From positions 1 through 50,364 of the IMG/VR virus record IMGVR_UViG_2563366831_000011: DNA of 50,364 nucleotides. The stretch is one strand, 5' to 3'. The notes under the pieces are model-generated. The model ran no database searches. It saw only the letters and a program-made list of their open reading frames with translations, and had not been told where the DNA came from. The position numbers and the translations under genes are program-made. Positions 17,907 through 33,650 of the stretch are shown here, piece after piece. Within the stretch, counting starts at the first letter, position 1, and each line of letters begins with the position of its first letter. This stretch comes from a virus (lineage: Duplodnaviria; Heunggongvirae; Uroviricota; Caudoviricetes).

Positions 17907-17957
17907 AATAAATAAGCCCACCGTAGTGGGCCATTCAAAAACCACGAATTTGTGGTT
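17907..17957 (-). terminator. Two tandem rho-independent terminators after rha copy A
   Basis: Minus strand reads AACCAC-AAATTC-GTGGTT-TTTG, then GCCCAC-TACG-GTGGGC-TTATTTATT. Confidence 0.65.
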
Positions 17958-17958
17958 T

Positions 17959-18516
17959 TCATGATTCGGTAAGCGCACCAGGAAAACCGGGCAATGCCAA
18001 CTGACCTTGCTTGTCCAGTTGCTCAATGCGTGAAAGTAGCTGTGGCTTCTTCTCTTTCCCCCACCGGCGCAACAGACGACCAGACATACTGGCAACATCC
18101 TTCTCTTTAAGGAACTCCAGCATGACGGCGTTACGCTCTTCTTCAAACTGGCGCCGCCCAACCTGAAGCATCGCGTACATCCAGTTGAAGGCGTTGATGT
18201 AGGCGATCTTGATACGCATCGCCTCTTTTTTGGTGTAGGACATAACCAGAAGCATCAATCCATCTTTGCGGAGGCGATAGAACTTCTGCGGCTTTCCGTT
18301 CTGCAACTCATTGTTTTTATAGCAAACCTCAAAATTGAGTTTTGTATCGAACTCTTCCGGGCATGCCTTAATAGTCTTTTCGATATCACGAATGACGTTG
18401 TCAGGACGTTTCCCAAATGCCTTCGCCACCATAAACGAGTCAGTTACCGGGTCGTTGTCAGCAACAAAAATGAGGTCACGGAAATCAAGTCCGTTAATAA
18501 CTGTTGGGTATGACAT
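17959..18516 (-). CDS. rha: Rha-family phage regulatory protein (copy A), inserted in the tail operon
   Basis: 185 aa. VTDSFMVAKAFGKRPDNVIRDIEK...KFYRLRKDGLMLLVMSYTKKEAMRIKIAYINAFNWM is the pRha-domain pattern. It is a paralogue of 31312-31836. Confidence 0.75.
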   Translation of the reverse strand: MSYPTVINGLDFRDLIFVADNDPVTDSFMVAKAFGKRPDNVIRDIEKTIKACPEEFDTKLNFEVCYKNNELQNGKPQKFYRLRKDGLMLLVMSYTKKEAMRIKIAYINAFNWMYAMLQVGRRQFEEERNAVMLEFLKEKDVASMSGRLLRRWGKEKKPQLLSRIEQLDKQGQLALPGFPGALTES

Positions 18517-18665
18517 TGCGGTATTTCCTTTAGAAAGATGAGCCTGTTCGCACAGAAATGCCGCCCCGAGAAGGTCCGCACCTATACGGCATTTCTCAGG
18601 CTCAGCTTTCTGAAAGACTCGGGAGTTAAATGCGCTGCGACGCGCAGGAGGTTTATTTCTGGTAT
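18517..18665 (-). promoter_or_regulatory. Conserved structured 5' leader of rha (copy A); candidate cis-regulatory or c4/IsrK-like RNA
   Basis: Aligns along its length by eye with 31837-31978. It contains the long hairpin GAGCCUG-AGAAAUGCCG...CGGCAUUUCU-...-CAGGCUC, ending next to the rha SD. Confidence 0.45.
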
Positions 18666-18690
18666 AAAAAAGCCCGGACTTGGCCGGGCT
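18666..18690 (-). terminator. Rho-independent terminator after the tail tube gene
   Basis: Minus strand reads AGCCCGG-CCAAGT-CCGGGCT-TTTTT. Confidence 0.75.
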
Positions 18691-18696
18691 GATTGT

Positions 18697-19140
18697 TTAC
18701 GCTGAGTAGTCTGCCGGGGTGACAGTTTCCCACTGGATAAGTCCAGTTACCGGCTGAAGAACACGGCCGGCAGACGGCATGCGGCGTGCGCGCTGCAGGA
18801 TACCGTTAGTCATGATGTACTTTTTACCCAGCGACGGCAGGATCACAGTCCCATTGACACGCAGCACAGACCGCGTGGTCATCTGCGTGGTTTGCCAGTT
18901 GTCGATGTACTTAATCGACGGGGATGATGCCGCCAGATGGAAAGTCCACGGCAGATCACCATAAACAAAACCACCCAGCAGTTTACCGTCAGCAGTACGC
19001 TGGTACTCTGCCATGTCGGTATCACCCATTTCGAAGATGTTTTGTGCTTCGAACTGTTCCAGGTTAAACCCTGACGGGTAGAGCTCAGCGATTACCAGCT
19101 CAATGATGGCGTCAGCCGCCGTAATATTTTGACCGGCCAT
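18697..19140 (-). CDS. Tail tube protein
   Basis: 147-aa ORF directly after the sheath gene (ATGA-type overlap). The call rests on order and size. Confidence 0.6.
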   Translation of the reverse strand: MAGQNITAADAIIELVIAELYPSGFNLEQFEAQNIFEMGDTDMAEYQRTADGKLLGGFVYGDLPWTFHLAASSPSIKYIDNWQTTQMTTRSVLRVNGTVILPSLGKKYIMTNGILQRARRMPSAGRVLQPVTGLIQWETVTPADYSA

Positions 19141-30019: not shown

Positions 30020-30688
30020 TCACGCCAGCTTAAGCATGCACGTCCCGCACGCTCTGGCAACATCGATATGAGCAACCTCCGCCGGCCTGTTCGCAGCATC
30101 CACCATTTCCTGCACGTCTTTGCTGGCGCCGTAACGCCGGACAACTCCGACGAATTCCTCGACGTCGTGGCCGCGAAGTTTGAGCACCGGCATACCGGTC
30201 TCTTTGTTGAATTTCGGCGCGCCATAGTCATCGGTAGCCTGGGCGATGTGGTAAAGCTCATGCTCTACCAGTGCGCAGAACTCCAGATCGTTGCATTGCT
30301 CGCAGTAGTCAGCAGCCAGGGTGATGATGAACTTCGGTATGCGTCCGAACCATTCATGCATCTGCTGCTCCATTCTGGCTTTCTGCCAGCCACCGGCGCG
30401 CATCATTACCTGCTCACACTGGCCCAGCACAATGCGGCCGCTTTTGGCGAATGAGCCAGAGGCCCACATGAACGCGACATCAGCATCGAGCAAGTGCGCA
30501 TGGTCAGGGTTATGGATTCGGCCATCTTCGGAGAGGATGTTCTGATTTACCCATTCGCCGATTTCGGCAGCAGGGATCAGCCGGGTATAAGGCAGCCAGT
30601 TTTCGCCAGTGAAGTTGACGGGAGGGTATGGTCTGCGATTGTCATTTCCAGCCATACAGAATAATCCTCTGGGTTGCTTTGATGCCAT
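30020..30688 (-). CDS. Putative phage metallopeptidase (HExxH)
   Basis: 222 aa with an HELYH motif. This is the first ORF of the late packaging block. The alternative start at 30655 (MAGNDN...) has the better SD (AGAGGA). Confidence 0.6.
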   Translation of the reverse strand: MASKQPRGLFCMAGNDNRRPYPPVNFTGENWLPYTRLIPAAEIGEWVNQNILSEDGRIHNPDHAHLLDADVAFMWASGSFAKSGRIVLGQCEQVMMRAGGWQKARMEQQMHEWFGRIPKFIITLAADYCEQCNDLEFCALVEHELYHIAQATDDYGAPKFNKETGMPVLKLRGHDVEEFVGVVRRYGASKDVQEMVDAANRPAEVAHIDVARACGTCMLKLA

Positions 30689-30828: not shown

Positions 30829-30848
30829 TTGTCTCTTATAAGAGACAA
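30829..30848. repeat. 20-bp perfect palindrome TTGTCTCTTATAAGAGACAA
   Basis: I checked the base pairing position by position. It lies in a 550-bp non-coding gap. Confidence 0.9.
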
Positions 30849-31041: not shown

Positions 31042-31158
31042 ATGTTGAAAATCAGTTTGTTTAGAACAATCGTCAATCACAAAATAACCTTCGCTGTCAT
31101 CTGCTTCCTTTTGAGCCTGATTCACTTCTACTTAACCGGCTCGCCTCTATCTTTCTAA
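31042..31158 (+). CDS. 38-aa hydrophobic mini-protein, antisense to the late transcript (below the ORF-track cutoff)
   Basis: AAGGAG SD lies 6 nt before the ATG. The product is MLKISLFRTIVNHKITFAVICFLLSLIHFYLTGSPLSF, with one predicted TM helix. Confidence 0.4.
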   Translation: MLKISLFRTIVNHKITFAVICFLLSLIHFYLTGSPLSF

Positions 31159-31311: not shown

Positions 31312-31836
31312 TCAATTAATCAGCAGTTCAGGCTGTGTCACCTGCAAGATGTATTCATGCTCGACAGCCAGGACACGCTTCTCTTTCTTCCGTTCGTTCA
31401 TTAACCGACTGCCGATCGTACCTTTCAGCTTTGAGCGTGTTTCTTTGATGGCGTAGCGGTGCTGCATTTCTTCGCCAATTGCCATGCGGCGGCTCAGTTG
31501 CTCTGCCATCCAGTTGAATGCTGCGATATAGCTCTCCTTGATTGCCGCAGCAGCTTTCCCGGTGAACCCCATCACAACCATGATCCAGCCATCTTTCGTC
31601 AGGCTGTACATCGGGCGAACCTTGCCCTGCTCATCGATATAATCAGCCGACGCAAAATTGCGTTGGCTAAACTCACGCGAGCAATCAGCCTTAACCTGCT
31701 CGATTTTCCTGAGAACATCACCGTGTCGCTTGCCGAAGTACTTGGCAATTTTTCTGGATGTGGTAACGACCTCTCCGTTTTTGGCTTGCACCATTTCTCG
31801 GAAGTCGAAGGCTGGAATAACTGAATGATTATTCAT
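31312..31836 (-). CDS. rha: Rha-family phage regulatory protein (copy B)
   Basis: 174 aa from MNNHSVIPAFDF. VTTSRKIAKYFGKRHGDVLRKIEQ...MYSLTKDGWIMVVMGFTGKAAAAIKESYIAAFNWM is the pRha pattern. Confidence 0.75.
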   Translation of the reverse strand: MNNHSVIPAFDFREMVQAKNGEVVTTSRKIAKYFGKRHGDVLRKIEQVKADCSREFSQRNFASADYIDEQGKVRPMYSLTKDGWIMVVMGFTGKAAAAIKESYIAAFNWMAEQLSRRMAIGEEMQHRYAIKETRSKLKGTIGSRLMNERKKEKRVLAVEHEYILQVTQPELLIN

Positions 31837-31978
31837 AGCGTCTTTACCTTTTAGAAAGTGAGCCTGTCTCACAGAAAAGCCGCCCGAGAGAGGTCGCCAC
31901 CTATAACGGCATTTCTCAGGCTCGCTTACTGAAAGGCTCTCGTGAATATGCGCGTGAGATGCGCATTTACTGCGGACA
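31837..31978 (-). promoter_or_regulatory. Conserved structured 5' leader of rha (copy B)
   Basis: Homologous to 18517-18665. It has hairpins ATGCGC-atctcac-GCGCAT and GAGCCUGAGAAAUGCCG...CGGCUUUUCUGUGAGACAGGCUC. CCUUU...AAAGG pairing reaches the SD region. Confidence 0.45.
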
Positions 31979-32002
31979 TAAAAAAGCCCCGCATCGCGAG
32001 GC
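31979..32002 (-). terminator. Rho-independent terminator after Rz/Rz1
   Basis: Minus strand reads GCCTCGC-GAT-GCGGGGC-TTTTTT. Confidence 0.75.
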
Positions 32003-32034
32003 TCATTAAATGGACTTTGTGATTTGCAAAAAAA

Positions 32035-33494: not shown

Positions 33495-33570
33495 TGGTGC
33501 TGTTTAACGGACTTGAACCGCTACCCATTCGCTTACAAGGCGACCGCTCTACCATTGGAGCTAAAACAGC
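33495..33570 (-). tRNA. Phage tRNA-Thr (anticodon UGU)
   Basis: The reverse complement is GCTGTTTTAGCTCCAATGGTAGAGCGGTCGCCTTGTAAGCGAATGGGTAGCGGTTCAAGTCCGTTAAACAGCACCA. It has a 7-bp acceptor stem, the anticodon loop CTTGTAA, and a T-loop TTCAAGT. There is one mismatch at the base of the anticodon stem. Confidence 0.75.
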
Positions 33571-33575
33571 ATGTT

Positions 33576-33650
33576 TGGCGGGACAGCGTGGACTCGAACC
33601 ACGATAAGAAGGTTAACAGCCTTCCGTAATGACCTTTATACGACTGACCC
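33576..33650 (-). tRNA. Phage tRNA-Asn (anticodon GUU)
   Basis: The reverse complement is GGGTCAGTCGTATAAAGGTCATTACGGAAGGCTGTTAACCTTCTTATCGTGGTTCGAGTCCACGCTGTCCCGCCA. It has a perfect anticodon stem GAAGG/CCTTC with loop CTGTTAA and a T-arm CGTGG-TTCGAGT-CCACG. There is one acceptor mismatch and a weak D-stem. Confidence 0.7.

Follow-up and report, generated by a model that had tools for sequence, protein, structure and literature searches.

A structured leader RNA with covarying long-range helices upstream of phage rha-type antirepressor genes

Virus record IMGVR_UViG_2563366831_000011 of IMG/VR, analysed here along its full length of 50,364 nt (hereafter 'the window'), is a Klebsiella myovirus-type prophage, and over the region queried with BLAST it is 99% identical to Klebsiella phage ST15-VIM1phi2.1. 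It carries two rha genes, both on the minus strand: rha A (17959..18516, ATG at 18514-18516) encodes a 185 aa protein with the Pfam domains Phage_pRha and ORF11CD3, and rha B (31312..31836, ATG at 31834-31836) a 174 aa protein with Phage_pRha. Proteins of the antirepressor class, which includes Rha, KilA-N and ANT, can trigger or disturb the lysis-lysogeny switch. Despite an identity of only 35% between the two Rha proteins, the regions preceding their genes are strongly conserved, with a mean column identity of 81% in the core alignment and near-identical hairpin arms. Measured from the T-run of the preceding terminator to the ATG, the leaders extend over 18517-18670 (copy A) and 31837-31983 (copy B), both on the minus strand, and contain a domain of approximately 135 nt. 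An initial reading of this locus from the sequence alone (the sequence-only reading) had noticed this conservation and proposed that each leader was a riboregulator, possibly related to C4 or IsrK. What type of RNA is this, and how might it influence the genes downstream of it?

Fold of the leader

Relatives were gathered from 80 loci around genes related to Rha-A, 80 around those related to Rha-B, 44 loci from bacterial genomes sampled at one per species and 120 loci retrieved with an exact 16-nt leader pattern; these loci are labelled with L-numbers. A covariance model, R1, was built from 27 diverse seeds and identified 93 instances in 99 sources. In the 50-kb window it matched exactly twice, both times on the minus strand, at 18514-18649 (122 bits, E 6e-27) and 31834-31968 (123 bits, E 4e-27).

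The fold is made up of a small hairpin, P0, a long but interrupted hairpin, P1, and two long-range helices, K and a:a'. The sequence-only reading had described a long hairpin on the sense strand, the base of which reached the Shine-Dalgarno (SD) sequence, and this description proved accurate: the minimum free energy (MFE) structures of copy A (-51.7 kcal/mol, z = -2.9) and copy B (-48.1 kcal/mol, z = -2.1) each consist of a long hairpin with a basal helix that takes in the SD. Its coordinates were correct to within a few bases, whilst P0 and both long-range pairings had been missed. In copy A, all parts of which are on the minus strand, P0 (UGCGC-GUCGCA-GCGCA) lies at 18631..18646 and P1 at 18526..18617, the latter being closed by the pairing of the anti-SD UCUUU (18613-18617) with the SD AAGGA (18526-18530) and having an apical hairpin, e, at 18572-18583. 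The equivalent features of copy B, on the same strand, are P0 (AUGCGC-AUCUCAC-GCGCAU) at 31948..31966 and P1 at 31846..31937, with anti-SD CCUUU (31932-31936), SD AAAGG (31847-31851) and hairpin e at 31891-31902.

The search for covariation amongst homologous leaders that had been suggested from the sequence found it in abundance, both in the nested helices and in K and a:a'. Across 79 distinct rows, P1, P0 and hairpin e together had 76.8% of cells in standard pairs, as against at most 57.6% when the partners were slid, and on this model-derived alignment 32 of the 37 nested pairs showed double-sided changes, values that none of 500 shuffles matched. The upper stem of P1, d, was 89% paired with double changes in nine of its ten pairs, and the P0 stem 85% paired with double changes in four of five. 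The lower stem scored only 68% on the model-derived alignment because one-base insertions and deletions between subtypes misregister its columns; its basal pairs 41-157 and 42-156 were 84% paired, and included double changes. Single-sequence folding, carried out independently on 30 representatives less than 88% identical to one another, returned the same P1 in all 30: the basal SD helix is followed by a second helix and then a GC-rich one, above which come a bulge of 6-7 nt in the 3' strand, the upper helix and the apical region. The SD thus forms the 3' strand of the basal helix across subtypes, with some uncertainty over this pairing in the representative from phage P22, the segment of which ended short of the SD.

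Helix K joins the loop of P0 to the bulge of 6-7 nt on the 3' strand of P1. In copy A the loop UCGCA (18636-18640), which is the 5' strand of the helix, pairs with UGCGA (18548-18552) within the bulge GUGCGAA (18547-18553), and in copy B UCUCAC (31954-31959) pairs with the bulge GUGAGA (31867-31872). Elsewhere the same two segments read UCACAC/GUGUGA, CUCACC/GGUGAG, UGCCC/GGGCA, UUCGUA/UACGAA or UUCUCG/CGAGAA; in searches with an exact pattern that fixed the bulge, every genuine leader retrieved had the matching P0 loop. On the alignment, which was not fitted to K, the helix was 95.9% paired with double changes at five of five pairs, and its covariation score was 0.471, compared with 0.171+-0.015 after shuffling and no more than 0.096 when slid. 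All 26 distinct cognate combinations of loop and bulge could form at least five contiguous Watson-Crick pairs, as against 12% of non-cognate combinations.

The second long-range helix, a:a', is formed by the 6-8 nt immediately 5' of P1 ('a') and the single-stranded 3' side of the P1 apical loop (a'). Strand 'a' of copy A, CCCGAG (18618..18623, minus strand), lies directly 5' of the anti-SD and has CUCGGG (18565-18570) as its partner; that of copy B, CGAGAG (31937..31942, minus strand), pairs with CUCUCG (31885-31890). At least 17 distinct sequence pairs were found, amongst them CACAGAA/UUCUGUG, CGUCGA/UCGACG, GCAUAGAG/CUCUAUGC and CAAAGAG/CUCUUUG. Counted in the register of copy A, the helix was only 51% paired; as most sequences align two columns away, it was recounted in the majority register, where it was 80.9% paired with double changes at six of six pairs on an alignment not fitted to a:a', and had a covariation score of 0.509, compared with 0.235+-0.018 for shuffled alignments and at most 0.20 in other registers. 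In a test independent of register, 82% of cognate and 7.6% of non-cognate combinations had at least six contiguous Watson-Crick pairs. The segments that form P0, P1, K and a:a' do not overlap, and therefore nothing in the sequence makes these helices mutually exclusive. With the helices of a widespread and strongly covarying RNA assigned exactly, compensatory-mutation experiments can be designed at once.

These patterns bear on whether the element acts as RNA at all. A function in the DNA would have the inverted repeats serve as an operator or promoter (the palindrome of P0), or as a site at which the folded single strand recombines and so mobilises the gene cassettes; their cassette-like spread in front of many different genes would be in keeping with this, as would the sequence at P0, where a GC palindrome precedes an A/T-rich box, in L037 and L069 a perfect TGTATAAT. 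However, it is the loop of P0, not the stem, that covaries with a partner approximately 90 nt away, just as 'a' covaries with a', and pseudoknotted pairing is unexpected in operators or attC-like sites. Single substitutions in 'a' (in L031, L089 and L091) preserve the pairing as G.U in the sense RNA only, and the sense fold is more stable than the antisense fold in 25 of the 30 representatives (mean -40.2 against -34.9 kcal/mol). This per-sequence folding replaced a strand test based on counts of G.U and A.C pairs in alignment A4 (180 and 184 respectively), which were uninformative because insertions and deletions misregister the lower stem. Furthermore, the fold incorporates the SD, RNA from the element has been sequenced (P22F, discussed below), and a consensus scan found no sigma-70 promoter between the terminator and P1 in either window copy or in loci L109 and L089. 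A role at the DNA level consequently seems very improbable.

Comparison with C4, isrK and other known RNAs

At the gathering scores of Rfam 15, the whole window contained three tRNAs only, with neither C4 (RF01695, clan CL00128; the antisense RNA of P1/P7 immI) nor isrK (RF01394), and neither of these two families matched either leader even at E<=10. The models did perform as expected on controls gathered in the same searches: in Aeromonas, Marinobacterium and Laribacter loci with distant rha homologues (L117, L119, L122 and L125), isrK (51-76 bits) is followed by C4 (49-71 bits, the gathering score being 45 bits) at around 60-250 nt upstream of the rha-like ATG, which is at position 1501 of these loci. 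R1 did not match the loci with isrK and C4. As both known RNAs precede distant rha homologues, yet are not detectable in the window, the leader is therefore a different RNA that occupies the same niche. Hence the kinship with C4 and IsrK that the sequence-only reading had raised as possible is not supported, and the analogy is one of function alone, whilst its view of the leader as a structured riboregulatory element does stand. That the leader represents a new RNA family in the C4/IsrK niche, one not in Rfam, is strongly supported, and two unrelated folds (isrK with C4, and the leader of the type found in the window) fill the same regulatory position before rha-type genes. Variants of the niche were seen in the same set of loci: the Chromobacterium locus L120 has sRNA-Xcc1 at 1360-1451 in place of isrK and C4, and inspection by eye of L121, L123 and L124 revealed a sub-threshold C4-like stem ending in CACC.

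The two systems have a good deal in common. Each is a structured RNA that follows a terminator and immediately precedes an antirepressor or rha-type gene, and in each, sequences from upstream pair with unpaired segments of a long closing stem; in L122, for instance, the loop of the isrK hairpin contains AUUGGUC, the complement of GACCAAU in the junction of C4, and the target sequence recurs 3' of C4. In the IsrK-orf45-anrP system of Gifsy-1, intramolecular pairing of IsrK with the downstream region silences the translation of the read-through mRNA until the short IsrK acts in trans (PMC4825925). The folds themselves are nonetheless distinct. C4 has an uninterrupted closing stem of around 17 bp, two hairpins, a single-stranded junction of approximately 8 nt and a CACC-like tail, whereas the leader has a single inner hairpin, a closing stem interrupted by a bulge of 6-7 nt that is itself a pairing partner, and a 3' closing strand that carries the SD rather than CACC. 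The pairings of the leader are nested (k<a<a'<k') and those of C4 parallel. C4 recognition sequences match both the upstream a1/b1 and the downstream a2/b2 at the next ribosome binding site; the leader has upstream complementarity only, and a search of the entire window for a second C4-like target (a2/b2, in a k...a arrangement) found none beyond the cognate leaders. C4 is processed by RNase P to a trans-acting repressor of around 77 nt; for the leader, the processed RNA on record is the read-defined P22F fragment discussed below. Nor does the leader have the separate short RNA with its own terminator that characterises isrK: the terminators in front of the two leaders follow the stop codons of the preceding structural and lysis genes, and no isrK-like hairpins accompany them.

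Other phage RNAs offer looser parallels. Among phage leaders that sequester the SD through structure, translation initiation regions lie within conserved RNA structures in the alternative structures of lambda cIII, the lambda N leader with its RNase III site and the T4 gene 32 pseudoknot. These leaders have other folds and partners, and none is known to combine a kissing helix between a loop and a bulge with a pseudoknot to the 5' flank. The CI RNA of P4, which with seqA and seqC is a structural relative of IsrK (PMC4825925), is alike in being a processed RNA derived from a leader, the loops of which pair within the same transcript and silence downstream phage genes. It differs in acting on transcription termination and in having both upstream and downstream targets, neither of which was seen here.

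A mechanism similar to those of C4 and CI might still operate through a different fold. Under such a scheme an excised P1, similar to P22F, would bind cognate transcripts in trans, its k' bulge pairing with their P0 loop and its a' with their 'a', thereby setting antirepressor expression and immunity-like types. A stable processed fragment does exist in P22; the recognition helices reassort on a conserved scaffold, with at least 15 types of K and at least 17 of a:a'; co-resident copies differ in K, both in the window and in L041, L044 and L049/L073; and distant rha homologues carry a true isrK and C4 pair at the same position, in which the short upstream RNA targets its own read-through mRNA in trans (PMC4825925). 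Set against this, there is no second target of the a2/b2 type near the ribosome binding site or elsewhere in the window, no terminator or promoter that would yield a separate 5' decoy RNA, and the differences between co-resident copies are too few for statistical meaning. Moreover, no base is contested between the helices, and folding in cis alone is therefore enough to explain the covariation. We therefore regard this scheme as possible but unlikely.

The cross-talk between the two window copies that had been envisaged in the sequence-only reading depends on the helix considered. The K helices are incompatible, with 3 nt of cross-pairing, whilst exchange via a:a', the cores of which overlap, is conceivable because the a' region of copy B, CUCUCGGG, also contains CUCGGG. 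A broader version of the same proposal, in which the leader is a new class of doubly pseudoknotted phage RNA with K and a:a' as programmable specificity, such that an excised hairpin discriminates cognate from non-cognate antirepressor transcripts in trans, appears similarly doubtful. Were it correct, it would constitute an RNA-based specificity system akin to C4 heteroimmunity in function but with a different fold, which would govern prophage induction or cross-induction in polylysogens of E. coli, Salmonella and Klebsiella, including those with Shiga-toxin (Stx) phages.

The P22F small RNA and the control of translation

The sequence-only reading had named a stable small RNA from the leader as a point to check, and one has been sequenced from the homologous element of P22. 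P22F, an 89-nt non-coding RNA abundant in P22 infection, is among ten small RNAs reported from this phage and was represented by 926 and 2054 reads, with 'no known function' (Naaz et al. 2026, Noncoding RNA 12:21, PMC13397905). R1 matches P22 at L207:1205-1347 with 108 bits, and P22F (NC_002371 39550-39638) falls inside this match, covering most of P1 from just 3' of the anti-SD strand to 6 nt before the conserved rha ATG. The P22 leader shares the terminator, P0, K (CCGCA/UGCGG) and a:a' (CCACCGA/UCGGUGG), and P22F hence represents the same element, at the same position relative to the rha start, as the leaders of the window, which belong to a different sequence subtype. The report of P22F was the sole published description of the element found; it defines a small RNA from reads only, leaving the family, the pseudoknots, the pairing of the SD and the connection with antirepressor genes undescribed (PMC13397905). 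This orphan RNA thereby gains both a structural and a genomic context. The unnamed non-coding RNAs in the BTP1 transcriptome paper could not be mapped to this locus.

Two further observations concern the P22 homologue. The RefSeq coding sequence (CDS) of P22 rha begins at a GTG inside the P1 hairpin (ORF201; L207 1276, NC_002371 39575), whilst the start conserved amongst homologues is an ATG 70 nt downstream (L207 1346, NC_002371 39645), with its SD at the base of the hairpin; the RefSeq start codon is probably mis-annotated. Additionally, a small self-cleaving ribozyme of the pistol or HDV-like type was considered on the basis of a resemblance in topology only, and was rejected: P22F spans the core, its sequence being unbroken through the c/d junction and both P1 pseudoknot strands, and there was no Rfam match at E<=10.

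One explanation for P22F is that it is the nuclease-resistant remnant of a processing or stability element, a site or barrier for RNase III, RNase E or exonucleases that segments the late transcript and stabilises the flanking mRNA. The elements do lie inside polycistronic late operons, the ends of P22F, within or beside P1, look processed, and RNase III sites of phages, such as T7 R1.1 and that of the lambda N leader, are similar to a long interrupted double-stranded RNA whose bulge is asymmetric. However, the leader travels with antirepressor-type genes rather than with a position in an operon, on its 3' side it stops invariably at the SD, from which the spacing to the ATG is constant, and the terminator hairpin already provides the upstream mRNA with a 3' barrier. 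This explanation is, in our view, a little less probable than an RNA acting in trans.

The interpretation that we favour, with moderate confidence, is that the leader is a cis-acting translational lock on antirepressor cassettes in late operons. The anti-SD directly adjoins strand 'a', and the SD has a predicted unpaired probability of 0.001-0.12 in copy B and 0.09-0.51 in copy A, pseudoknots being ignored in these calculations; the AUG of rha is mostly open in the pseudoknot-free prediction of both copies. From this arrangement we infer that the anti-SD:SD helix would be held shut inside a compact, doubly pseudoknotted domain, in which a stack of d and a:a' (about 17-19 bp) might lie beside the lower stem (about 19-21 nt) and so clamp the anti-SD onto the SD. 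Strand 'a' pairs near the apex of P1, yet is only 0-2 nt from the basal anti-SD, and therefore all the helices can coexist only if P1 folds back at the bulge, where it may be bent in a manner resembling a three-way junction. In combination with the terminator upstream, such a lock would keep potentially harmful regulators off, or at a low level, on read-through late transcripts. Release could then come about through processing that removes the 5' clamp, or through a trans-acting RNA or protein.

Several features weigh against a lock of this kind. The basal SD helix is only 5-6 bp long, and in copy A it is closed only moderately in the pseudoknot-free model. Two elaborate tertiary pairings exceed the needs of simple SD masking, which hints at some other or additional function. 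On its 3' side P22F stops between the SD and the AUG, as would be expected of a free small RNA or a remnant of decay more than of an mRNA that has been activated. Amongst the 30 representatives, no trigger, mutually exclusive pairing or conserved nucleotides resembling a ligand pocket were found. Finally, the compact three-dimensional arrangement is deduced solely from helix lengths.

The scarcity of conserved unpaired nucleotides is also relevant to whether the leader could be a sensor, in the form of a riboswitch-like RNA or a protein-binding operator through which a metabolite, an ion or a protein of host or phage origin would couple antirepressor translation to the state of the cell. A junction and two pseudoknots with the SD in the closing helix amount to the fold complexity typical of translational riboswitches, and the only conserved unpaired motifs in the 30 representatives, a CAG/CUA internal loop near the SD and a G-AG junction, might be contact sites; nearly all conserved positions are helical. 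But very few unpaired nucleotides are invariant, and the apical hairpin e is dispensable, being absent from the second copy in L044, which retains both long-range pairings. Autoregulation by the product is unlikely because the downstream proteins belong to different families. A sensor of this type is accordingly improbable, although not to the same degree as a DNA-level element.

Control through a leader peptide was examined and rejected. Copy A has a 20-codon open reading frame (ORF) at 18590-18530 on the minus strand, running from an AUG in the upper stem to a UAA that overlaps the SD, but this is probably fortuitous because its counterpart in copy B stops after three codons and most homologues lack the AUG. 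A plus-strand ORF (18538-18705, 55 aa) was likewise dismissed, its frame being broken by insertions and deletions between the copies.

Distribution and genomic context

In BLAST searches, the rha-like genes of many phages, CUS-3, Sf101 and Stx1 and Stx2 phages among them, proved to have the leader upstream. It is present across the Enterobacterales, in Klebsiella, Raoultella, Enterobacter, Escherichia, Citrobacter, Erwinia, Mixta, Rouxiella, Pectobacterium, Yersinia and Rosenbergiella, and also in Gilliamella, Halomonas and Ventosimonas. Subtype B alone occurs in 651 of 5426 complete E. coli genomes (about 12%). The element is to be found in a textbook phage, P22, in the interval between the lysis genes and terminase of Shiga-toxin phages, in Klebsiella prophages and in these E. 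coli genomes. In three E. coli matches, H78, H81 and H82, the leader coincides with a feature annotated not as Rha but as a GIY-YIG nuclease family protein or an HNH endonuclease beside a KilA-N gene.

A single leader subtype precedes Phage_pRha genes (with or without ORF11CD3 or ANT/KilAC), KilA-N genes (with or without ORF11CD3) or ANT/KilAC genes, the junction between leader and gene falling just past the SD. Some loci have cassettes in tandem: leaders are found at 731-872 and 1554-1693 in L041, at 1362-1503 and 3134-3251 in L044, and at 1-139 and 1365-1503 in L049/L073, with gene orders of Rha then KilA-N, or an antirepressor-like ORF then Rha. Within each of these loci, the K and a:a' sequences differ from copy to copy.

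In the window, as the sequence-only reading had stated, each leader begins directly behind a terminator, here an intrinsic-terminator-like hairpin and T-run. That of copy A (18665..18690, minus strand) has a 7-bp stem with six GC pairs at 18671-18690 and a T-run at 18665-18670, and is located just past the stop codon of a gene in the position of the virion tube gene, the cassette being placed between the sheath and tube genes and the tail assembly chaperone. A terminator scan, together with the neighbouring genes, indicated a further terminator downstream of rha A (17915..17932, minus strand), which closes the cassette inside the tail operon. The terminator of copy B (31984..32004, minus strand), a hairpin with a T-run, is found 3' of an Rz-like spanin gene, with the cassette placed after the holin, endolysin and Rz genes and upstream of terminase; the same slot between Rz and terminase is occupied in P22 and in one Stx phage. 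As no sigma-70 site was found between terminator and P1, expression of rha probably relies on read-through by late, antiterminated transcription.

Within the A/T-rich linker between P0 and 'a', the perfect extended -10 box, TGTATAAT, is found only in L037 and L069, this segment being loosely -10-like elsewhere. A promoter in this box was rejected because the resulting transcript would be without strand 'a', which conflicts with the covariation of a:a'. At approximately 1290-1340 of L109, from Intestinirhabdus, there is no terminator before the leader, its place being taken by the palindrome TGTAATCAAAAAATGATTACA, which looks like an operator; the promoter scan of the sense strand was negative there.

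A small number of other features were noted in the window. Between rha B and the terminase genes is a transposase-like ORF (phrog_513; 30023-30688, minus strand), adjoined by a perfect 20-bp palindrome, TTGTCTCTTATAAGAGACAA, at 30829-30848; together these look like the insertion of an IS (insertion sequence) element into the late region. Just downstream of rha B, on the opposite strand, a 38-codon ORF (31042-31158, plus strand) encodes the hydrophobic peptide MLKISLFRTIVNHKITFAVICFLLSLIHFYLTGSPLSF, which could be a small membrane peptide or a toxin moron. Of the three tRNA genes in the window, one lies at 1009-1080 on the plus strand, and the other two are found on the minus strand at 33498-33570 and 33579-33650, in tandem and immediately upstream of the holin gene of the lysis cassette.

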